From contig JAUWTD010000002.1 in assembly GCA_030609775.1 (NCBI GenBank), positions 1 through 53,365 on the forward strand: a stretch of 53,365 bases of DNA, written 5' to 3'. The notes below the pieces were generated by a model that saw only the letters and a list, made by a program, of their open reading frames with translations, was not told the origin of the DNA and did no database searches. Every line of letters starts with the position of its first letter. Within the stretch, counting starts at the first letter, position 1. This document shows positions 2,524 to 53,365 of this stretch, in pieces. The DNA comes from Candidatus Altiarchaeota archaeon. GTDB lineage: Archaea; Altiarchaeota; Altiarchaeia; IMC4; QMZM01. The position numbers were made by a program, and so were the translations under genes.

Positions 2524-3780
2524 ATGAATATAAAAAAACCAAGAGGCACACGAGATTTTCCCCCCTCTGAGCTGGCTGCAAGAGAATATATCAAATCAAC
2601 CCTCTCACAGGTCTTTGAAGCCTACAACTACCAAAGAATCCAGACACCGACCTTTGAGCATGCTGAATTATTCCAATTAAAATCCGGAGAAGAAATAGAG
2701 GAACACATGTATGTCTTCGAAGACAAATCCAGTAGAAAACTATGCCTCAGACCCGAGGCGACAGCATCCGTCTGCCGGATGTTTTCAGAGGAATTAAGGA
2801 GCATCCGCCTTCCATTAAAATTATATTATTACGGTCCAATGTTCCGCTATGAAAGACCCCAGAAGGGACGCTACCGCGAATTCTGGCAGATCGGCATGGA
2901 ATTAATAGGCCCACAAAGCCCTGAATCAGATGCAGAAACAATCCTGCTGGCGTATGATTCCTTAACGAAGCTTGGTTTAACCTTCACACTCGAAATAGGG
3001 CACATGGGAATCATCCGCGGATTAATGAGCGACCTTAAAATAGATGAAAACATCCAAAACAAGGTGATAGCATGCATCGACAAAGGCGACATAAGTCAAT
3101 TAGAACAACTTGTAGATAATCCCGTTATCCATGACCTCATAAAACTCAAAGGATCTGTTAACGTAATCACCCAAGCAGATAACATCCTTAACGAATACAA
3201 GACCGCCAAAACCGCATTCAACGAACTCAAAGAAGTTCTTGAGTGGCTGGATAACATGGGAACAGAGTACTGCCTGAACCTGGGAATAGCCAGAGGTCTT
3301 GAATACTATACTGGCACAGTCTTTGAGATCCAAATCCCTAAGCTAGGCGCCCAAAGCCAGATCTGCGGCGGAGGAAGATACGATAACCTAATAGAACTCT
3401 TCTCCGGATTAAAGATCCCCGCAGTCGGATTCGCATTCGGATTCGACCGGATCATGAATGCAATCAAACTCCAAGGAATCAAGATACCTGAAAAAAGAGC
3501 AGACCTTGTTGCTGCACCAGTAAATAATGCCATGAGACAACATACGTTAAAGATAATATCTCCTCTACGAGATACATTCATAGTTGACTTTGATGTAATG
3601 AACAGAAAACTCGATAAGATACTGAAATATGCCGGAGACATCCAGGCAAAATATGTTCTCATAGTGGGTCCAGAGGATTTGAAGGATAACCAGGTTACCC
3701 TAAGAAATATGGGGGATGGAAAACAAGAGAAGATAAAGATCACCGATCTAGAGAATAGACTAACAAAACTTTGCAGATAA
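2524..3780 (+). CDS. hisS: Histidyl-tRNA synthetase
   Basis: Class II motifs: LRPEATASVCR, FRYERPQKGRYREFWQIG, GGGRYDNL, and a C-terminal anticodon-binding domain. Confidence 0.95.
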   Translation: MNIKKPRGTRDFPPSELAAREYIKSTLSQVFEAYNYQRIQTPTFEHAELFQLKSGEEIEEHMYVFEDKSSRKLCLRPEATASVCRMFSEELRSIRLPLKLYYYGPMFRYERPQKGRYREFWQIGMELIGPQSPESDAETILLAYDSLTKLGLTFTLEIGHMGIIRGLMSDLKIDENIQNKVIACIDKGDISQLEQLVDNPVIHDLIKLKGSVNVITQADNILNEYKTAKTAFNELKEVLEWLDNMGTEYCLNLGIARGLEYYTGTVFEIQIPKLGAQSQICGGGRYDNLIELFSGLKIPAVGFAFGFDRIMNAIKLQGIKIPEKRADLVAAPVNNAMRQHTLKIISPLRDTFIVDFDVMNRKLDKILKYAGDIQAKYVLIVGPEDLKDNQVTLRNMGDGKQEKIKITDLENRLTKLCR

Positions 3781-4959: not shown

Positions 4960-5733
4960 CTACTTCTTCTTTAATTTGCCTAGGATCAGGTCAGAAACCC
5001 GTTTACCTGAAAGCAGCATACCCCCAAAGATCGGACCCATCCTAGGTGCACCGAAGACTGCATTTGCAGCCATTCCAGCAACATACAAGTTAGGATATAC
5101 CTCTTTTGTATTCTCAACAACAAGAGACTCTGACTTATCCGCCCACATAGAACCTTCCCCTTCAATGTTCCCTGAAGCTGTGTTGAGTCCACCCACCTTC
5201 ATCTGCACGATCTTACATACCTCTGTCGGATGCCCTGTTGCATCAACACAAAACCTTGACCTAATAGCCAACGGATCAACATGTAATCCAGCAACCTCAA
5301 CCGAACTCCAGTTAATAACGAAACCTGAGACACCTGAATCCCTGATTAAGACATCCTCAACAGAGATCCCGTTAAATATTGTAACCCCTGCATCAATAGC
5401 CTTAGCAGTTAACTTAGCAACAGACTCAATAGAGCTTGCAACAAACATGCCGTTTTTTCCACTATATTTTATCCCGAAGTCATCTAGGATATGAACCGCA
5501 TCCTCCTGAACCACAATCTTCGGAAACATCATACCTCCACCCCACATACCTCCGCCAATAGAAAGCTTCCTCTCAAATAAAACAACACGCACACCCTCAT
5601 CTGCAAGATATCTTGCCGCGACCAAACCCGAAGGCCCTCCCCCCGCAATCGCAACATCAACATCAACGTTGTCGAGAAAATCATCTAATGCATTCTTCAC
5701 AATCAACCGCGTAATCTCTATTTCATCTATCAT
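4960..5733 (-). CDS. thi4: Thiazole synthase (Thi4 family)
   Basis: VAIAGGGPSGL dinucleotide fold, GGGMWGGGMMF, CVDATGHP and YVAGMAANAVFGAPRMGPIFGGMLLSG. Confidence 0.9.
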   Translation of the reverse strand: MIDEIEITRLIVKNALDDFLDNVDVDVAIAGGGPSGLVAARYLADEGVRVVLFERKLSIGGGMWGGGMMFPKIVVQEDAVHILDDFGIKYSGKNGMFVASSIESVAKLTAKAIDAGVTIFNGISVEDVLIRDSGVSGFVINWSSVEVAGLHVDPLAIRSRFCVDATGHPTEVCKIVQMKVGGLNTASGNIEGEGSMWADKSESLVVENTKEVYPNLYVAGMAANAVFGAPRMGPIFGGMLLSGKRVSDLILGKLKKK

Positions 5734-8734: not shown

Positions 8735-9679
8735 TTAGGAAGGTAAGGGATACGCCTTAAGCAAGTCCTTATTCTTAAACTCCCTTAAAAGTTCATCATA
8801 CCTATTCTTTATCGCAGACTCAGGGACCTCATTAACACTCACTATTGTTTCAGTTTGCTTATCATCCGTCATCCTACCTGCAAGATATATCGCTGCAGCT
8901 GCAATGCTTATCGGCACCTTACCTGAAATAATCCCTTTTTTCCGGGCATTCTCCAACATCTCTATAGCCTTTGCCTCAGTCTTACCTGAAACACCAAGCT
9001 CTGATGCAAGCCGCGGAACATAATCCGATGCTTTAATCACAGGCATCTTCAACTCCAGTCTCCTGCATATTGTCCGATAACTCCTACCAATATCCTTCTT
9101 CTTTACACCAGAGACCTCTTCTAACTCCTTTAATGTCTTAGGTAAGTGATGTTTCCTTGATACTATATAGATTATCGCAGCTATGACACTCTCTATCGAC
9201 CTTCCTCTGACGATTCCTTTATTCACACACTTCCGATACCAACGGGCACATTCCTCCTTTATGTTAGGTGAAACATTCAAGTGCGCACACATCCTATCAA
9301 GCTCAGGTAAAGCAATAGAAAGATTCCTGTCAACAGACGTACCCATCCTCGAACGCCTCTGCCACTTCCTCAGCCTATAAAGCTGAGCCTTCCTTTCAGA
9401 TGGAACAGCACTACCCTTAATATCCCGATCATACCGATCTATCTCAGTTGTAAGACCACTATTCTGTTTCGCAAACTTCAAAGGCCCACCCGTCCTAGAA
9501 CGCTTATTCATCTGTTCTTCATCAAAAGCTCTCCATTCCGGTCCAAAATCAAAAAGTTTATCTTCCTGAATCAGTCCACAACCCCTACAAATAACCTCTC
9601 CATGTCTGTAGTCAACCATAACCTTCATGCTACCGCATGATCTACAAGATTCCGTTTTAACTCCAACCTCAGATTCCAT
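8735..9679 (-). CDS. tfb: Transcription initiation factor IIB (TFB)
   Basis: N-terminal Zn ribbon CRSCGS...CRGCG, B-finger/linker, and two cyclin-fold repeats (RGRSIESVIAAIIYIVSR, ISGKVPISIAAAAIYLAGR). Confidence 0.95.
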   Translation of the reverse strand: MESEVGVKTESCRSCGSMKVMVDYRHGEVICRGCGLIQEDKLFDFGPEWRAFDEEQMNKRSRTGGPLKFAKQNSGLTTEIDRYDRDIKGSAVPSERKAQLYRLRKWQRRSRMGTSVDRNLSIALPELDRMCAHLNVSPNIKEECARWYRKCVNKGIVRGRSIESVIAAIIYIVSRKHHLPKTLKELEEVSGVKKKDIGRSYRTICRRLELKMPVIKASDYVPRLASELGVSGKTEAKAIEMLENARKKGIISGKVPISIAAAAIYLAGRMTDDKQTETIVSVNEVPESAIKNRYDELLREFKNKDLLKAYPLPS

Positions 9680-9717
9680 TTTAACCCCAACCTCCTATTC
9701 AAATACTATCCCTACCG

Positions 9718-9760
9718 CTGAAGGGTTACATACCACCTCATCCAACTGAAGGGTTACATA
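9718..9760 (-). promoter_or_regulatory. Two perfect 15-bp direct repeats upstream of tfb
   Basis: CTGAAGGGTTACATA occurs at 9718-9732 and 9746-9760 (28-bp period), 40-80 nt upstream of the tfb ATG. Confidence 0.25.
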
Positions 9761-9868
9761 TACAGATTTCAACCACCCCGAGAAACAAAAAAAAATATAA
9801 ACCGCGCTCTCGGTTACCTGTATTTATTATAGTGTAAATTCTGATATAAATACTTATCGGTTATCTGG

Positions 9869-9970
9869 GCTTTGCTCCTAAAGTACGTTTTGCTCCTAAA
9901 GTCAAGAAGTTGTTCCTAAAGTCGGCCACTGCTAATAAGTCGGCATTTTCAGTAGGTTATTAGCAAAGCC
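9869..9970. repeat. Left repeat module: tandem about 18-bp units followed by a terminal hairpin
   Basis: Units are GCTTTGCTCCTAAAGTAC, GTTTTGCTCCTAAAGTCA, AGAAGTTGTTCCTAAAGTCG and GCCACTGCTAATAAGTCG. The terminal segment is GCATTTTCAGTAGGTTATTAGCAAAGCC. The start and end are inverted copies of GGCTTTGCT..TAA. Confidence 0.75.
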
Positions 9971-10026
9971 ACTACCCGATAAATATATTTATATAACTAT
10001 ATGCAATAATTACATTACTCATTTAA

Positions 10027-10094
10027 CTGTATTTTGTATATAACCGTATTTTGTATATAACTGTATTTTGTATATAACTGTATTTTGTATATGG
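10027..10094 (+). repeat. Four tandem 17-bp repeats (CTGTATTTTGTATATAA) immediately upstream of the small ORF
   Basis: Copies at 10027-10043, 10044-10060 (CCG variant), 10061-10077 and 10078-10094 (ends ..TATGG). Each carries a TATA-like TTTGTATATAA. Confidence 0.85.
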
Positions 10095-10100
10095 TCTAAA

Positions 10101-10271
10101 ATGGTAGTTATAAAAGTTGATGAAAAGGATTTAGATAAGGTATTTGGAATACTTTCAGGTAATGGAAGATTTATGGGTCTACCAGACAACATGTTCCGCA
10201 TTGATGAACACGTAGAGGAGGTTTTGGAAAAGATAAAAAAGGAAGGGATCAAAGTTGAGATAATAGACTGA
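10101..10271 (+). CDS. Small hypothetical protein (56 aa)
   Basis: ATG at 10101 (MVVIKVDEKDLDKVFGILSGNGRF...); the track start at 10068 is a TTG inside the repeats. No family recognised. Confidence 0.5.
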   Translation: MVVIKVDEKDLDKVFGILSGNGRFMGLPDNMFRIDEHVEEVLEKIKKEGIKVEIID

Positions 10272-10288
10272 TTGTGTGGGTGTAATCT

Positions 10289-10624
10289 ATGAAGCTTTAT
10301 CGTATATTTATTCCAAAACAATACAATGATGGTAAAAAAATAGAACCCAAAAAAATACGGAAACTTACTGAGATGGTTAGGGAGCGCTTTGGTGCATACT
10401 CTATAAACCCATTTGCCATGCTGCCGTTTATACAAGGGGTGTGGACTTCTGAAGAAACACATAAATTATACACCGAGCCCATGTTTATGATTGAATTGTT
10501 TGTTGAAGATACTTTCAAGAACCAAAGGTGGCTTAAATCATTTAAAGAAAGGGCAAGACAGGAATTAGATCAAGAGGAATTATTTGTAATTTCACAGAAT
10601 GCTGAGATATTAAAGGATTATTAG
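10289..10624 (+). CDS. Hypothetical protein (111 aa)
   Basis: Begins 17 nt after the previous ORF: MKLYRIFIPKQYNDGKKIEP...FGAYSINP...GVWTSEE...EELFVISQ. Codon use is atypical for + strand genes here (Phe TTT 8 : TTC 1 by hand count). Confidence 0.6.
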   Translation: MKLYRIFIPKQYNDGKKIEPKKIRKLTEMVRERFGAYSINPFAMLPFIQGVWTSEETHKLYTEPMFMIELFVEDTFKNQRWLKSFKERARQELDQEELFVISQNAEILKDY

Positions 10625-10646
10625 TTCTTACTTATAACAGATACCG

Positions 10647-10730
10647 GCTTTGCTAATAAAGTCGCTTTTGCTAATAAAGTCGCTTTTGCTAATAAAGTCG
10701 GCATTTTTTGGTAGTTTATTAGCAAAACCA
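10647..10730. repeat. Right repeat module (imperfect direct copy of 9869-9970)
   Basis: One GCTTTGCTAATAAAGTC unit and two GCTTTTGCTAATAAAGTC units, then GGCATTTTTTGGTAGTTTATTAGCAAAACC. Confidence 0.75.
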
Positions 10731-10764
10731 GTTATCTGGATAGTTTGTGTGTCCAATATTTGAT

Positions 10765-10803
10765 GTCCCACATTCAGCGTTTCAAATACAGTCAATGTGG
10801 GAC
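10765..10803. repeat. Perfect 10-bp inverted repeat (hairpin, 19-nt loop)
   Basis: GTCCCACATT at 10765-10774 pairs with AATGTGGGAC at 10794-10803, just outside the cassette. Confidence 0.5.
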
Positions 10804-10854
10804 CCCTAATTCTCTACCTGCTGATTTATATTAAATAACTCCGTATCTTATTCT

Positions 10855-10947
10855 ATGCCATGCGGAAGAAAACGAAAAATCCAGAAGATGCGAACTCACA
10901 AACTCAAGAAGAGAAGGAAAAAGCTTAGAAGAATGCATAAAAAATAG
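10855..10947 (+). CDS. 30-aa highly basic peptide (bS22/mS38-like or eL41-like composition)
   Basis: ATG 10855 to TAG 10945-10947: MPCGRKRKIQKMRTHKLKKRRKKLRRMHKK. Too short for the ORF track. The pattern RKRK..KMR.HK.KKRRKKLR resembles small basic ribosome-associated proteins. Confidence 0.35.
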   Translation: MPCGRKRKIQKMRTHKLKKRRKKLRRMHKK

Positions 10948-11112
10948 GCTGACCTAATCCTTACATCTCGCATATTTGACTACTTCTTCATTTCCTGCTA
11001 TGATACTCATGTAAAGCGGATAATCCGATGATTTCCTATAAAATAATCAGATTAAAGCTATAGATCCTTTTTTTTTTGAAAATATTTTTTTAGAGTTCAA
11101 GGATAAATTTAT

Positions 11113-12102
11113 ATGCTTGTTCTCCCTAATCTCCTTTGCAGGTTTCTCTTTAATATGGTACTCTATGAATCCTTTTTGGTTGTGGCAGGTATAATCGGTC
11201 TCTGTATTGGAAGCGATATTGTTGTCTTAGCTGCAAAAAGGATTGCAAACAGGCTACAAATTTCCCCTCTATTTGTCGGGCTTACGATTGCTTCTATTGG
11301 AACCTCTCTACCTGAGATATTCACAAATCTTATGGTGGGTTTCAGCAACCTGCAGGGAACAGATGCCTCAGGTATTGCAGTGGGAAATATCATAGGAAGC
11401 AACCTAGGACAGATTACACTAATACTGGGTATTGTAGGATTGTTCTCTACACTCCACATAGATAAAAGGGCGATGAGACGCGATGGCTTTATGATGTTTA
11501 TAGCATTGTTTCTTATGTTCCTGGTATGCTTTAATGGATCAGTATCACGGATTGAGGCAGTTTCCCTTATTGTGGTATATTTCATTTATTTAGGGGTCCT
11601 TATCAAACAAGAAAACGTGATAGAGAAAATAGAGTTACAAAAAGAGAAAGGCAGCCTCCTAATAGATTTCCTGAAGTGTATGGCAGGTATCCTGGTTATA
11701 GTCTATGCCGCAGATCTTGTTGTAGCCAACGGAATAAACCTTGCATCGGCTGCAGGGGTAACAGATTCCTTGATAGGTATATTCGTTGGTTTAGGTACCA
11801 GTATCCCTGAATTAAGTGTTTCCTTAAGGGCGATTATGAAAGATTCCGGGCGCCTATCCCTTGGAAACCTGATAGGCAGCAACATAACAGACCCTCTTCT
11901 ATCATTCGGCCTCGGAGCAACAGTATCTACTGTAACAGTAACTTCCCAAATACTACATTTTGATTTCATCTACTGGATGGCTGCAACATTAATCGCCTTA
12001 CTCATGCTGTCCACTCACATGGACTTGAACAAAAAAGAATCAGCTATCCTCATCCTGTTATATGTGCTATTCATATACCTACGGATTATGTTCTTTTCGT
12101 GA
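11113..12102 (+). CDS. Na+/Ca2+ exchanger (CaCA / YrbG-type) membrane protein
   Basis: Two alpha-repeat signatures, GTSLPEIFTN...GNIIGSNLGQI and GTSIPELSVS...GNLIGSNITD, with about 10 hydrophobic helices. Confidence 0.85.
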   Translation: MLVLPNLLCRFLFNMVLYESFLVVAGIIGLCIGSDIVVLAAKRIANRLQISPLFVGLTIASIGTSLPEIFTNLMVGFSNLQGTDASGIAVGNIIGSNLGQITLILGIVGLFSTLHIDKRAMRRDGFMMFIALFLMFLVCFNGSVSRIEAVSLIVVYFIYLGVLIKQENVIEKIELQKEKGSLLIDFLKCMAGILVIVYAADLVVANGINLASAAGVTDSLIGIFVGLGTSIPELSVSLRAIMKDSGRLSLGNLIGSNITDPLLSFGLGATVSTVTVTSQILHFDFIYWMAATLIALLMLSTHMDLNKKESAILILLYVLFIYLRIMFFS

Positions 12103-12142
12103 TCCGAAGATTTAATATTCTTTTACCTAGTCTAGTATTAAG

Positions 12143-15918: not shown

Positions 15919-17409
15919 CTAACCTAACCTCAAAAGTCTATTTAATCCATTGATGAACGCGATAACAGAAGCCATCACAATATCCTCATGAACTCCGCGA
16001 GCCATAACAGTTCTCCTACCATCACCTACCCTTATTGTTACATCAGCAAGAGCATCCGATCCACCGGTTATCGCATCTAGATGATATTCCTCTACTAATA
16101 TTTCCTCTCTACCCACGGCAGACTTTATTGCATTCAACACCGCATCAACTGGACCCACACCATCCTCCTTTGCGTTCTTCTCAACCCCATCAACCTTAAG
16201 GATTATGGATGCTACTGGCTTTTTGTTGATTTTAGACTGCAATTCTAAATCAATTAACACAATCTTTCTTTCGGCCTGAGGAACCATACCTAAAATATCC
16301 TCTGCTATCGCAATAAGATCTTCTTCAAAAACCTTTTTACCTTTACCGCCTAAATCCTTTACCTTTGAAGTTATCTCCCTGAGCTGCTCTGAGTCCACCG
16401 CTATATCCAACTCCTTGAGTTTAGCAGCTACCCCATGGATGCCAACATGCTTCCCTAAGACAAGCCGTCTCCTAGCACCCACCATCTCAGGGTTTATCGG
16501 CTCAAATGTTTCAGCTTTCTTCAAAACCGCATGAACATGTATCCCTGATTCATGGGCAAAAGCATTATCCCCTACAATAGGGAAATTCGGCATCAACCGA
16601 ATCCCTGAAAGCCTTTCAACTAATTTACTTAGAGGATATATTTTCTCAGTTTTTATATTCGTTTTTACTCCATAAAGCACATGCAGACCCATAACTACCT
16701 GCGCCATATCTGCGTTACCTGCTCTTTCACCTAATCCATTCACAGTAGTCTGAACCTGATTACAGCCAGCCTCCACAGCAGCTAACGTATTAGCCACAGC
16801 CATACCAAAATCATTATGGCAGTGAATATCCAAATCCACATGTATCTCCTTTCTTAGCTTCCCAATCAATTCTTTCATTTCTGTAGGATATATTACTCCC
16901 ACTGTATCAGGGATATTGATGGTGCCTGCTCCAGCCTCTTCAACAGCCTTACAGACCTTAACCAGATAACCTAAATCACTTCTTGTCGCATCCATCGGAG
17001 AAAACAGACAAGGCAGACCATGATCTACTATATATTCTACAGCCGCAACAGCCATTTCACATACTTCCTCCTCACTTTTCATCATCTGATACTTCAAATG
17101 CTGAGGCGAAGTCGAAATAAATGTGTGCACTAAGTCAACATCTGCTTTAAGACATGCATCAATATCACTTATTAAAGCCCGGGCAAGACCACAAACCTTT
17201 GTATCAGCCTCTGAAGAAATCTGTTTCACTGCCCTGAATTCATCTTCAGAATTAATCGGAAACCCGGCTTCAATAATATCAACTCCAATATCTGATAGAG
17301 CATGAGCTAACTCCAATTTCTTTTCCAGAGTAAACGCAACACCTGGCGTCTGTTCTCCATCCCTTAGGGTTGTATCAAAAACCTTTATCTTTTTTTGCAT
17401 ATCCGGCAT
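15919..17409 (-). CDS. 2-isopropylmalate synthase / (R)-citramalate synthase family (LeuA/CimA)
   Basis: [44 protein letters not shown] and a C-terminal LeuA-dimer regulatory domain. Start moved to ATG 17409 ([12 protein letters not shown]); the track start at 17463 adds an implausible 18 aa. Confidence 0.9.
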
Positions 17410-31853: not shown

Positions 31854-32768
31854 TTAGGAACCTGAAAGAATACTGATCAACTCATCTGAATCATTAATTT
31901 CATTTAACTCACCTGGCTTTAAGATGACAACATCAGAATCCTCATTCCGATTACTAATACATACACCATAAATTCCAAGAATTTCAGAAACATCATTCAT
32001 AATTTCGACTTTCAACCTAAGCCTACGGGAATCATCACTCACAGTAGTTATAACCCGTTCATTGTTCAACTCAATTGCAACAATATCAAAAGGTGCATTT
32101 GTCAACGCAGTAGAAAAACCAAGATTCTGAAACTTCTCTAAAACCATTTTCTTCAGAGAAGTAATGTGTGCAGTAGAGTTCTCAGAATAGGTAATTTCCT
32201 CAAAAGAAAAAACCTTCTGAGGTAAGGTGATATCCTTTCCAAGAAGATCCATCAAGCGTTCAGCTATATTCAAACACATCCTACCAGACAACTCATATCT
32301 ATGTATTGTTTGTTTAGATACATTCAATTCATAAGCAAGTTTCTGTTGAGTCAGATTCAGTTCTTTACGCAGCTTCACAAGCAACTTAGAATCAATCCCG
32401 ATACAATAGTTACCTCTCACAGAATAAATAGAAGGAGAAGGCAGATTTTCATTAACTACCCCCTCAAGAGTCTTAAGATTAAGGGCATGAATGCCATATC
32501 TCGCATAGATGACACCCTCTGAAAGCTTTGCAGACTTCATATGATCACCTAAGACAAGAGGCACAGTAGACGTCATCGAGGCAACATCCTGCAACTCACT
32601 ACAGTTTTTTCTCGTAAGCCCATCAATGTTTGCAAGAATCTTTATGATAAGAACCTGGTCCTTGCGTGCAACTAAGTCAAAACAGCTCCTTAAACCGCTG
32701 CAGTCAAGCACCAGATAACCTGAATCCGAAAGTATTTCAACCGCCTTCTTAACAAGATCAGATTTCAT
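31854..32768 (-). CDS. XRE-type HTH transcriptional regulator (about 300-aa archaeal COG1395-like)
   Basis: Central HTH LNLTQQKLAYELNVSKQTIHRYELSGR. Start set at ATG 32768 (MKSDLVKKAVEIL); the longer track ORF would overlap lysC by about 100 nt. Confidence 0.7.
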   Translation of the reverse strand: MKSDLVKKAVEILSDSGYLVLDCSGLRSCFDLVARKDQVLIIKILANIDGLTRKNCSELQDVASMTSTVPLVLGDHMKSAKLSEGVIYARYGIHALNLKTLEGVVNENLPSPSIYSVRGNYCIGIDSKLLVKLRKELNLTQQKLAYELNVSKQTIHRYELSGRMCLNIAERLMDLLGKDITLPQKVFSFEEITYSENSTAHITSLKKMVLEKFQNLGFSTALTNAPFDIVAIELNNERVITTVSDDSRRLRLKVEIMNDVSEILGIYGVCISNRNEDSDVVILKPGELNEINDSDELISILSGS

Positions 32769-34155: not shown

Positions 34156-34497
34156 TTTTTTCAGATGATAAAAAAAATATTGAGGCAGTAGCAGTAGCCC
34201 ATCTTCTGTAAAGCCTTATTGCAAACAATGCTTGCGTTGACTTCTGGGGCATTCGTCTAAGCGGCAAAAACATGCCTTACACCAAACAGGGCATCTCGTT
34301 TCACAAGCCAATACGCATCTTCAACCAAAGCATCATAATAACGTATAGGCATCTCGTCTCTTTAGATGCTACCATAACTTTCGCCACGCAAAAAAAAGCT
34401 GTAAAATAATTGGTGGATGGAACTTCCTCACCCCTAAGGGCGAAGCCCCACAGCAACTACCTCATGTTATGAAAAACCATGTATAGATAATTTATCG

Positions 34498-37370
<2,873 letters not shown>

Positions 37371-37575
37371 TGGCGAATCATCTATACATGGTTTCATAAC
37401 AAATAATCAAATGATTATTATCCACCCTTCATCCACAAATAAGCTTGTGAATTGCATCTAAAATTACCTGATTATAGAATAAAGCGGTAGTTATTTCACA
37501 GGTCGACTATTTTCACGTCTACTACCGATGAACTTATTATAAGTATCAAAGACTTAAAAAGTGATTATATTTTAT

Positions 37576-37649
37576 TGGACCCGTCGGGATTTGAACCCGA
37601 GGCCTCCCGCGTGCAAGGCGGACGATCTACCAGACTGATCTACGGGCCC
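37576..37649 (-). tRNA. tRNA-Ala (anticodon UGC) in the 16S-23S spacer
   Basis: The reverse complement folds as GGGCCCG-UA-GAUC-AGUCUGGUA-GAUC-G-UCCGC-CUUGCAC-GCGGG-AGGCC-UCGGG-UUCAAAU-CCCGA-CGGGUCC-A. The G3:U70 Ala identity pair is present. CCA is not encoded. Confidence 0.95.
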
Positions 37650-37716
37650 CCAACGGATAATATATCCATAGAATGATAATGAAATTGACACTTAGTGCAA
37701 ACCACTGGTTTTTCTT

Positions 37717-39209
<1,493 letters not shown>

Positions 39210-51534: not shown

Positions 51535-53365
51535 ATGGATTTTCGAACACATAATATCCCTAAAAATTTTGTTTGGGAGATTACACGCGGCTGCAATCTC
51601 CATTGCAGACATTGCGGATCAAATTCAGGAGACCCGGCTACGGTCGAACTCACAACAGAGGAGGCGAAAAATCTCATAGACCAGATAACTGATATGGGCT
51701 TTGTATTCCTGACGATTACCGGAGGAGAACCCCTAACACGAAACGATATATTCGAGCTTATCAGTTACGCCTCCAAGAGAGGTATCTGTGTAACCTTATG
51801 CACTAACGGGTCACTTATCGACCAGAAAACCGCTGAAGAATTAGTTGAAGCGGGTCTGAAATGCGCATCCCTCAGCTTGGACGGCTGCAAGGAATTCCAT
51901 GACCTAAATAGATGCAACACATATGAGCAGGTAATTTCTGCAATTGATTATCTAAATAATGGAAAAATTACTGTTTTTGCCTCGATGATGATATCCAACG
52001 AAAACATAGAGATGCTTGAACAGGTTCACCGAATTGCGTCTAACCACGGCGTTGAGCGACTAAACATACATGCTCCCCAGGACTATGGAAGAGCAAAAGA
52101 TAATGAAATTACTTTAGATAAGGATAAACTCATAGATGTTATTTTGTTTGCAAACCAGAGGGAAGATTCTGAAACCAAGATATTTCTTGATGACGGATTC
52201 GGTGTCTACAACAATAGGTTCGGATGCGATGCAGGCCGTTCTTCCATGTTTGTTTCAGCTGAAGGTTTTATCCGGCCGTGCATTTCTTTTCCACAAAATT
52301 TCGGGAACATAAAAACAGAAAAATTAGCCGACGCCTGGAAAAGCCAAGGATTTGCTGCATTCAGAAAATTTGATCACTCACAACTCAAAGAACCCTGCAC
52401 AAGCTGCCCTCTTATAGAATCATGTCAAGGCGGATGCAGAGCAAAGGTTTTTTTAAAGACCGGAGACTTCTTTGCAGGGGATGCGGATTGCATCCACATA
52501 AAAGAGACTGCCCCCCAGCTTTTCGATAAAGCCGCAGCAGCCTCAGCTATTATCACCTCAGGCCTTATTTTAATGACCTCCGGATGCATAGACCAACCCG
52601 ACATTGAACCACTAAAAGATATTAATGGCTCAATTATCCAGATAAAAAACATGGAATTTTTTGTCGACGAAAAAATATCCGGGTGTGAAACATTCTATAA
52701 AGCAAACATAACCCTTGAAACAAACGGTTCAGTAGACCTAGATAAAATAAACCTATATTACGGCGGATTCCCCCTTGATTTTGATGTATCATCCTCCACG
52801 TTCACTAAAAAAGGTGACACCCTTTTTTATGAATACCAGATCGACTACATATTCGATAGCAGAATCCATAATTACTTTGATTATACCTACCTTGAAACCG
52901 AACGCATAAATTACAAAAACACTTTTTACTATGGTTACACTGAATCGGATTTATTTTTTTCTGATGTAGGTGATTCCAATGCAAGGCTTTGGGCTATACT
53001 CCCGCTAAAAACAGGGTTCCCTGCAAACATTTATGTGCAATCAGATGAAACACCTAATGTACGGAATCTAGAGATTAACATAAATGATGGAAACATAAAA
53101 ATAAAACGAATATCAAAAATAATCGGCGAAGAAAAAATTTATCTGATCACCACAGACAATCTTAATGTAGACCTATCTGAACGAATCGAAGTCGACATAT
53201 ATCTTGGAAAACATCACCTGAAAAAGATGCTTTCACACATAGATTCAAAAGATTTTTATATAGACGCCCCTCTTCCAAGTGTATGTCCTATGATGATTAT
53301 GCCTAGTCCCTCTATAAAATCCATACAATATATTGGAACAGAGACCGCAGTGATAAACCCCGAGC
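51535..53365 (+). CDS. Radical SAM / SPASM-domain protein fused to a TM (lipobox-like) segment and a large C-terminal domain; 3' end outside the window
   Basis: Not in the ORF track because it has no stop. I translated the frame by hand without a stop from ATG 51535 through about 52,680 and read the remainder to position 53365 less carefully. Motifs: GCNLHCRHCG (CxxxCxxC), TITGGEPL, and SPASM-like cysteines CDAGRSSMFVSAEGFIRPC...CTSCPLIESCQGGCRA...DADC. These are followed by AAAASAIITSGLILMTSGC and at least 260 aa of N/Y/D-rich sequence. Confidence 0.85.
   Translation, partial: MDFRTHNIPKNFVWEITRGCNLHCRHCGSNSGDPATVELTTEEAKNLIDQITDMGFVFLTITGGEPLTRNDIFELISYASKRGICVTLCTNGSLIDQKTAEELVEAGLKCASLSLDGCKEFHDLNRCNTYEQVISAIDYLNNGKITVFASMMISNENIEMLEQVHRIASNHGVERLNIHAPQDYGRAKDNEITLDKDKLIDVILFANQREDSETKIFLDDGFGVYNNRFGCDAGRSSMFVSAEGFIRPCISFPQNFGNIKTEKLADAWKSQGFAAFRKFDHSQLKEPCTSCPLIESCQGGCRAKVFLKTGDFFAGDADCIHIKETAPQLFDKAAAASAIITSGLILMTSGCIDQPDIEPLKDINGSIIQIKNMEFFVDEKISGCETFYKANITLETNGSVDLDKINLYYGGFPLDFDVSSSTFTKKGDTLFYEYQIDYIFDSRIHNYFDYTYLETERINYKNTFYYGYTESDLFFSDVGDSNARLWAILPLKTGFPANIYVQSDETPNVRNLEININDGNIKIKRISKIIGEEKIYLITTDNLNVDLSERIEVDIYLGKHHLKKMLSHIDSKDFYIDAPLPSVCPMMIMPSPSIKSIQYIGTETAVINPE

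Follow-up and report, generated by a model that had tools for sequence, protein, structure and literature searches.

A probable transposase-less derivative of an IS6/IS1-like transposon carries a conserved gene pair beside tfb in an Altiarchaeota genome

Mobile insertion cassettes (MICs) have inverted-repeat ends, encode no transposase and are moved by a cognate transposase located elsewhere (PMC3129680), and qnrS2 provides an example of such a passenger-carrying element (PMC5444012). Transposase-less derivatives of insertion sequences (IS) with passenger genes are of a kind already known. Here we describe an 862-bp element (positions 9869..10730, + strand) in a stretch of 53,365 nucleotides from a Candidatus Altiarchaeota archaeon (contig JAUWTD010000002.1, assembly GCA_030609775.1), referred to in its entirety as the window. 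From left to right the element comprises an end module L, promoter-like repeats, two small open reading frames (ORFs) named ORF56 and ORF111, and an end module R. It has inserted into the spacer between tfb, encoding transcription factor B, and a gene for a small basic peptide, with a duplication of 9 bp (or 8 bp), inverted GGnnnTG ends and end units that occur in multiple copies. Other genomes carry this gene pair beside homologous IS6/IS1-like transposases. We consider it probable that the element is non-autonomous, having lost the transposase of an archaeal DDE transposon family of IS6/IS1-like type while keeping its ends and two genes. This agrees with a preliminary description of the same DNA that had proposed a non-autonomous composite element.

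With MICs and with composites flanked by MITEs (miniature inverted-repeat transposable elements) the element shares inverted-repeat ends, a target duplication, passenger genes and the lack of a transposase. Unlike MICs, it is archaeal, each of its ends is an array of three to four direct units plus one inverted unit instead of a single repeat, its two end modules repeat each other in direct orientation, and the same cargo is found across phyla with different ends. A second group of relatives is suggested by the terminal sequence. GGnnnTG occurs in most IS6/IS26 ends and is common to the IS1 family, and archaeal 'IS6' inverted repeats reach 18 bp or more with recorded duplications of 8 bp (Harmer and Hall, PMC6807381). 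Pseudo-compound transposons of the IS6/IS26 type, which arise by copy-in cointegration, resemble the element in these ends and in having directly oriented copies that flank a passenger within one outer duplication (PMC6807381). Moreover, DDE genes beside the pair in other loci score best on an IS6 model. Unlike in IS6, the flanking copies are transposase-less modules of ~100 bp, 9 instead of 8 bases are duplicated, the DDE proteins stay just under the IS6 cutoff and carry a zinc domain of the IS1/IS1595 type, and the window is without a transposase. IS1 is similar in end signature and duplication length, as duplications in the IS1 family measure 8-9 bp, and it is the second-best transposase model with the corresponding zinc domain; the InsA/InsB frameshift arrangement of IS1 is missing, however. 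According to the ISfinder table, the archaeal ISMhu11 group has long passenger-carrying members.

The insertion is documented by its borders and by empty sites. The 9-mer GTTATCTGG stands exactly at both outer edges, at 9860..9868 on the left and at 10731..10739 directly outside module R, as the preliminary description had noted; the duplication shrinks to 8 bp if the last G is counted as the first base of the left terminal repeat. The chance of an exact 9-mer at both edges is about 4^-9 per boundary pair. To the left lies tfb (8735..9679, - strand; Pfam TFIIB and zinc ribbon) and to the right the gene for the 30-aa basic peptide MPCGRKRKIQKMRTHKLKKRRKKLRRMHKK (10855..10947, + strand), both outside the element. 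The closest TFB homologues are named Candidatus Altiarchaeales. We compared six related Altiarchaeales loci that represent five distinct sequences (L024, L025/L026, L027/L028, L031 and L034) and encode TFB proteins 87-91% identical to that of the window. In all six, tfb is divergent from the basic-peptide gene, the spacer is roughly 200-300 nt long and holds neither the cassette nor homologues of ORF56 and ORF111, and the region of the 9-mer is present in a single copy. These loci, which run from tfb straight to the next conserved gene, are the empty sites that the preliminary description had asked for, and they bear out its proposal of a target-site duplication around the 862-bp unit. The window without 9869-10739 aligns colinearly with the relatives across the junction, where the window reads ...ATACTTATCGGTTATCTGG|ATAGTT (CGGTTATCTGG|ATAGTT) and the closest relative, L031, reads ...ATACTTTTCGTTTTTCTAGGAGGGTT... 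(CGTTTTTCTAGG|AGGGTT). As the cassette is missing from the relatives and the 9-mer region is single there, these 871 bp equal the insertion plus the target duplication. The basic peptide is 93-100% identical across the relatives, whose DNA is otherwise just 72-77% identical, so that the exact ancestral 9-mer is inferred and not read. Another assembly, GCA_048633605.1, agrees with the window at 99.86% identity over 20 kb, and its cassette is identical; the sequence occurs in sequencing runs of cold-seep and brine metagenomes. GTTATCTGG occurs five times in the window against 0.37 expected from shuffles. The three extra copies (16962-16970, 32711-32719 and 51681-51689, - strand) all lie within coding regions, two of them encoding G-Y-L-V, and are probably an unrelated product of codon-driven chance.

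Both end modules are built from short units. Module L (9869..9970, + strand) consists of four direct units of 16-22 bp at 9869-9886 (GCTTTGCTCCTAAAGTAC), 9887-9908, 9909-9924 and 9925-9942, a 14-nt loop (9943-9956) and one inverted unit (9957-9970). Module R (10646..10730, + strand) has three perfect 18-bp direct units at 10649-10700, with 100% matches in Tandem Repeats Finder (TRF), a loop and an inverted unit at 10715-10728. The tandem units of 17-18 bp described before can thus be read in both modules, and the end given for module R was correct, whereas its true start is 10646 (GGCTTTGC) and not 10647. That L and R are imperfect direct copies was confirmed by a local alignment score of 63 compared with a null of 19.7 +/- 2.9 (z 14.7), at a similarity of ~75% (divergence ~25%). 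The proposed conserved hairpin holds for module R, which forms a perfect 13-bp stem with a DNA fold z of -4.2, but is weak in module L (z -1.5). Inverted units bound each module as proposed (18 nt at 89% and 19 nt at 79%), although the inverted symmetry of each extends a few bases into its flanks. A second module copy is found nowhere else in the window.

Between module L and ORF56, TRF detects TATA-like tandem repeats at 10024..10092 (+ strand; period 17, 4.1 copies, 96% matches), corresponding to the four 17-bp repeats noted earlier ahead of the two ORFs. We presume that they are promoter copies; the block ends 8 nt 5' of ORF56. No Pfam or NCBIfam model of a transposase or integrase matches ORF56 or ORF111 and nothing else is coded inside the element, in line with the earlier statement that neither enzyme lies within it. 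The composition of the element is foreign: its GC content is 33% versus 40% in the window, and GC at third codon positions is 33% versus about 40%. Of the TTT/AAG-type codon usage claimed for the two ORFs, the preference for TTT stands (TTT:TTC 8:1 in ORF111), whereas for lysine AAA (9) exceeds AAG (3).

The outer ends of the whole unit form imperfect terminal inverted repeats, the left GCTTTGCTCCTAAAGTAC matching the reverse complement of the right, GTTTTGCTAATAAACTAC, at 14/18 positions. The outer arm of module R doubles as the terminal inverted repeat on the right (reverse complement GGTTTTGCTAATAAAC...). The GGnnnTG signature is represented by GGCTTTG at 9868-9874 and by GGTTTTG, the reverse complement of 10723-10729. 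A search for further module copies, as suggested by the preliminary description, was positive in cold-seep metagenomes. There, the summed depth of the two-unit stretch 9868-9905 amounts to ~1298 in run X3 and ~274 in run X2, while flanks and cargo are at ~3, an excess of 100-400x. Over runs X1-X4, contigs bearing the units have seven or more distinct left flanks of unique sequence. Some run on into further units with a period of 18-20 nt, and others finish in a loop followed by an inverted unit, as in GGCGTTTTTTGGTAC TTAAGGAGCAAAGC, with arms CC/GG versus AA/TT in module R. Given the high depth and the many flanks, unit arrays of this kind are present at many places without the cargo, as is expected of miniature insertion-sequence derivatives. 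An origin of the high-depth 35-nt contigs from a CRISPR repeat was considered and rejected, as the neighbouring sequence consists of further units with an 18-20 nt period and not of spacers. The hairpin core TGCTAATAA(N)GTCGGCATTTT gave one chance match only in JGI metagenome contigs, inside a Bacteroides-type coding region, and viral contigs contain neither this core nor the two-unit pattern. In a brine strain (run X6), a 34-nt skip (10023->10058) leaves two of the four 17-bp repeats, so the tandem arrays are unstable and polymorphic in copy number. The X6 contig (9910-10137) also differs from the window left of 9910, its module L beginning at the third unit. Excision or circle junctions, which the preliminary description had proposed to look for, and other joints were absent from the DNA contigs of the metagenome runs.

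The gene pair itself is widespread. Our survey covered 16 independent loci with ORF111 homologues, in 15 of which tblastn finds an ORF56 homologue directly upstream, with no match in L021; both ORFs are thus conserved genes, whereas the preliminary description had named a lack of conservation as a refuting result. The hosts are Woesearchaeota, Nanoarchaeota and Aenigmatarchaeota (DPANN), Methanosarcinales, Thermoplasmatota and one Ignavibacteriaceae bacterium. The neighbours of the pair differ at every locus and include trpE/trpG, pcrB, a proteasome subunit, trm1, secDF, lon, GINS and the rpl1 operon, among others. In L009, the pair is situated between inverted repeats (GTGCTTTGTTTAAATAAT) that match at 15/16 positions, are visibly related to the window unit and are flanked by a 10-bp direct repeat; each side has three boxes, of which the last is inverted. 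In L001, the ATGA stop/start overlap of trpE and trpG is interrupted by the pair, and AAATGACTAA is duplicated on each side. Ends of the window element and of L009 are of the GCTTTG type, whereas L016, L018, L021 and L010 have boxes of the CAACCG type, A(A/T)CAACC(G), straight after the ORF111 stop codon. A common non-coding stretch of ~45 nt, AACCTATTTTTCCCAAAC...TTACACAGAACC, is located 3' of ORF111 in L010 (4375-4420; Ignavibacteriaceae bacterium) and L017 (4360-4405; Thermoplasmatota archaeon), and in shortened form in L035 (about 3385-3410); it may be a shared cis element or a right transposon end. In the P0013 lineage (20 contigs), the pair always occupies one fixed site upstream of rpl1-rpl10-rpl12, has no recognisable ends and provides no evidence for multiple insertion sites. 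Relatives of ORF111 were found neither in viral contigs nor in phage records, and plasmids gave one weak match only.

Two observations concern the surroundings of the pair. In L003, a HEARO RNA (RF02033, 129 bits) is encoded at 5473-5688 (+ strand), 115 nt upstream of the pair, and likewise in L004-L006. The HEARO RNA family goes with HNH-endonuclease ORFs and corresponds to the omega RNA of IscB. No IscB-like ORF is found near the HEARO RNA in L003-L006, where the pair occupies the position expected for the nuclease gene. Furthermore, restriction-modification genes that depend on S-adenosylmethionine (SAM) lie near the pair in two loci, an anecdotal finding that would gain weight if SAM is a substrate of ORF111: an Eco57I/MmeI-type methylase adjoins the transposase in L010 (161-3654), and AccI-like and Eco57I-type genes and GmrSD occur in L001 (1070-3524, 7807-10623).

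The transposase link rests on a single DDE family. Using the DDE proteins of L010 and L011 as tblastn queries, we found this family within 4 kb of the pair in 5/16 loci. The gene is located directly upstream on the same strand in L010, in the same position but frameshifted and abutting ORF56 in L016, on the opposite strand in L011 and about 780 nt upstream in L018; L014 retains a fragment only. Among NCBIfam models the best match is the IS6 family with 123.2 bits (cutoff 125), followed by IS1, with a zinc domain of the IS1/IS1595 type; Pfam assigns DDE_Tnp_IS240. In L011, pair and transposase are enclosed in one 2.8-kb element by 27-bp inverted repeats (96%), and in L018 the boxes flanking the pair recur as inverted copies after the transposase gene. 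In the simplest reading, full-length elements run from one end through the DDE gene, ORF56 and ORF111 to the other end, and the copy in the window derives from such an element by loss of the transposase.

ORF56 (10101..10271, + strand) encodes a small, 56-aa ferredoxin-like protein whose alignment contains 11 invariant residues. AlphaFold2 (AF2) in single-sequence mode predicts a mini ferredoxin-like domain with a pLDDT of 92.9. Comparisons with Pfam, NCBIfam, PDB sequences and Foldseek returned no informative fold or family for ORF56, and a word-indexed homologue search returned ORF56 itself only. ORF111 (10289..10624, + strand) encodes a 111-aa PII-like, SAM-lyase-like protein of a DUF3574-related superfamily. 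Its homologues form about 30 clusters with 48-81% identity and share 18 invariant residues, and its AF2 model (pLDDT 87.8) has the b-a-b-b-a-b topology of the PII-like ferredoxin fold. The top PDB match in Foldseek is the phage SAM lyase Svi3-3 (6zm9; E 6.4e-4, TM 0.63/0.56, 20% identity), and further matches are PII/GlnK proteins, a SAM-AMP lyase and another SAM lyase, with 9gad and 9lqe among those listed. A profile search yielded 319 representative clusters. DUF3574 is matched by 11/79 remote relatives, and one protein with a triple DUF3574 also matches Pfam S-AdoMet_lyase (PF23780) at 5e-11, whereas ORF111 itself has no match to PF23780 at E <= 1. The best viral matches of ORF111 are uncharacterised proteins of ~100 aa, several from T7-like podoviruses, and phrog_3543 (function unknown) is a weak match.

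Phage SAM lyases cleave SAM to MTA and homoserine lactone and serve to escape restriction. SAM lyases have few conserved ligand-binding residues, namely Gly56, Tyr58, Glu69 and Gln104(-Glu105) (PMC7877911). Invariant residues of the ORF111 family include G50-V-W52 as well as Q95 and E97, the latter two ahead of the last strand, and the sequences inspected have E or D at position 63. The motif G50-V-W52 / E63 / Q95-E96-E97 parallels G56-x-Y58 / E69 / Q104-E105 of Svi3-3, with the equivalence judged from spacing and secondary structure and not from a residue-level structural alignment. The T3 SAMase has a counterpart in G55-C-Y57, E67/E68 and Q94-D95 before its last strand. This parallel is suggestive. 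ORF111 resembles the phage SAM lyases Svi3-3 and T3 SAMase and the SAM-AMP lyases in the PII-like ferredoxin fold and may share the motif of G-x-aromatic, acidic (+11) and Q-E; unlike the phage enzymes, it is encoded on a chromosome, borne by transposons in archaea and paired with a 56-aa partner. Neither protein matches PADLOC models or toxin/antitoxin families in Pfam and NCBIfam, and the only resemblance of the pair to a toxin-antitoxin system is its layout of a small upstream and a larger downstream gene.

A mechanism compatible with these findings would start with a transposase, encoded elsewhere in the genome, binding to the 17-18 bp units and mobilising the block. This could proceed by cut-and-paste from the two outer ends. 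Alternatively, an IS6-type copy-in of a small circle of one module plus cargo could be involved, which would explain why L and R are direct copies inside one target duplication. The four TATA-like repeats presumably drive transcription of the cargo, which probably yields a leaderless ORF56-ORF111 message. ORF111 could be a trimeric PII-like enzyme and is predicted to bind or cleave SAM or a SAM-derived nucleotide, an activity by which it would weaken restriction or signalling that depends on SAM when the host is new. ORF56 would be its small partner, perhaps a regulator or inhibitor, in which case the pair would be addiction-like. Because depletion of SAM should be harmful, ORF56 may restrain ORF111. 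In such a model, the pair would be both an anti-restriction aid and an addiction module.

Several points weigh against the derivation from an IS6/IS1-like transposon or against the proposed role of its cargo. A transposase with matching, GGCTTTGCT-type ends was found neither in the 53-kb window nor in any fetched locus, and 12/16 loci with the pair have no recognisable ends. Tandem arrays of three to four end-like units are atypical for IS6 or IS1 ends, and an IS6-type duplication has 8 bp versus the 9 identical bases seen here. As L and R are only ~75% alike, a recent copy-in is awkward, even if slippage and conversion in the unit arrays could blur this argument from divergence. A 9-bp duplication in L018, TTAAATCAA, was first counted as a target duplication and then dropped, as it overlaps the conserved box core AAATCAACCGAA. 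With regard to the cargo, the SAM-lyase reading of ORF111 rests on a fold and a short motif, comparisons with the T3 SAMase (hhalign) and with PDB sequences were not significant, and Tyr58 of Svi3-3 is replaced by Trp in ORF111. Metatranscriptome contigs contained no transcripts of the locus, the coverage of the organism being negligible.

Among other explanations, two independent MITE insertions would have placed L and R around an earlier-acquired pair, with the identity of the 9-mers being fortuitous or due to a preferred target. Each module is indeed bounded by its own inverted units, solo arrays with a terminal inverted unit exist elsewhere, and L and R have diverged as described. However, neither module has a flanking duplication of its own, the exact 9-mer is found at precisely the two outer edges, and in the relatives modules and cargo are missing together and the site closes to a single copy of the 9-mer. 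We therefore regard two separate insertions as unlikely.

The pair could also mobilise itself if ORF56 and/or ORF111 bound the unit arrays and catalysed or directed insertion, in which case the nearby DDE genes would belong to separate IS at shared hot spots. In agreement with this, the elements with recognisable boundaries (window, L009 and L001) hold only the pair within 613-862 bp, the ends vary by lineage while the cargo is constant, as when ends co-evolve with an element's own protein, and ORF111 has invariant acidic residues and a tyrosine. On the other hand, both proteins have ferredoxin-like folds without features of DDE, HUH, serine or tyrosine recombinases, and the conserved residues of ORF111 map to a small-molecule site. 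A ferredoxin-like fold is not known from any transposase. The DDE family in 5/16 loci, which in two cases lies on the same strand directly upstream and in one case within the same inverted repeats, the inverted box copies after the DDE gene of L018, and the large excess of end units over cargo in metagenomes also speak against self-mobilisation, which we judge to be very unlikely. The same slim chance is given to the broader notion that the pair is the element's own machinery or an obligatory transposition cofactor of the IS6/IS1-like transposase. If the pair were the machinery, this would be a self-sufficient mobile element of roughly 0.6-0.9 kb with two ferredoxin-like proteins.

Site-specific recombination, the second reading offered in the preliminary description, would require a cassette of the integron type (attC) or one with attL/attR and a 9-bp core, acted upon by a tyrosine or serine recombinase encoded elsewhere. 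A shared att core would likewise leave direct repeats at the borders and a single copy at the empty site, and module R is an imperfect palindrome of attC-like size with flanks TTATAAC / GTTATCT. But GTTATCT has two mismatches to the integron core GTTRRRY, and the 9-mer copies flank L on the left and R on the right instead of standing at the 3' edge of each palindrome, where cassette arrays have their repeat. The border repeats moreover differ per locus at unrelated sites such as an intergenic spacer and the trpE/trpG overlap, and the enzyme accompanying the pair elsewhere is a DDE transposase and not a recombinase. With core sequence and geometry wrong, an integron cassette was rejected, and the recombination reading in general is highly improbable.

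That the block is an old resident regulatory region, with the unit arrays as operators of a local regulator, is hardly credible: arrays made of short direct units and four promoter-like repeats do resemble binding sites, but the block is missing from 6/6 related loci, is foreign in composition and has its units at many other places, so that the empty sites contradict this as a complete explanation even though the units could double as regulatory sites. A replication origin with origin recognition boxes (ORB) was discarded, given that the block was inserted and has no orc1/cdc6 gene in its vicinity. REP-RAYT systems (REPtrons) and IS200/IS605 also have a small gene between lineage-specific hairpin repeats that outnumber the gene. 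They were rejected since the invariant residues include no HUH/Y1 motif, Pfam gives no match and a target duplication is present, while IS200/IS605 elements make none; unlike in REP-RAYT, there are no other repeat copies within 53 kb. Finally, the 18-bp repeat of IS903, GGCTTTGTTGAATAAATC, seen in a 1057-bp element on a Klebsiella plasmid (L029), aligns with the window unit GGCTTTGCTAATAAAGTCG over 17 positions with two 1-nt gaps, and IS903 generates 9-bp duplications (PMC13618097). Derivation from IS903 (IS5 family) or Tn903 was nevertheless rejected, because this likeness is no better than the best chance match in shuffled 53-kb sequence; an IS903-type transposase is absent from every locus. 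We treat the likeness, seen at the sequence level, as a coincidence of GGnnnTG-type ends.

The surroundings of the element show further peculiarities. Directly to its right, an inverted repeat (ATTTGATGTCCCACATT / AATGTGGGACCCCTAAT) of ~47 nt at 10758-10810 is absent from all related loci aligned and looks like a second tiny insertion, in this case of a hairpin. On the left, a 24-bp tandem duplication (9647-9694; 2.0 copies, 91% matches) spans the start codon of tfb, and a 15-bp direct repeat, CTGAAGGGTTACATA, is found twice in the tfb 5' region (9718-9760); the relatives' sequence differs in both places. The basic-peptide gene has no Pfam or NCBIfam match, and its product resembles ribosomal protein eL41 in composition. 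The region from this gene to the GHMP-kinase/DUF1464 genes (10948-12142) is a variable island among Altiarchaeales. The window has a Na/Ca exchanger there, whereas L024 and L034 have Metallophos together with unknown genes, L027 has SpoIIM-like and 477-aa genes, and L025 has genes of the TrbC/T4SS-pilin-like kind. Farther away, the window carries a 16S-tRNA-23S operon and, 41 nt 3' of the 23S rRNA gene, an RNase P RNA gene (34184-34461, - strand); no match to 5S rRNA was reported in this region (34184-39208).

In conclusion, the locus provides a clean, datable example of transposition in Altiarchaeales, for whose phylum the highest median insertion-sequence content among archaeal phyla has been reported (PMC13343696). 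It is distinguished by its multi-unit direct-copy end modules, by its Altiarchaeales host and by a conserved SAM-lyase-like pair that accompanies IS6/IS1-like transposons across distant lineages. ORF56 and the SAM-lyase-like ORF111 are an undescribed two-gene module riding on these transposons, which is distributed over DPANN archaea, Methanosarcinales and Thermoplasmatota and reaches at least one bacterium. An addiction-module role, if true, would explain why the pair has survived the loss of the transposase. With their unit arrays, direct-copy modules and single outer duplication, the ends make it possible to test for copy-in cointegration in archaeal 'IS6-like' elements. If ORF111 does degrade SAM or a SAM-derived signal, transposons would carry an anti-restriction or anti-signalling function that is so far known from phages.

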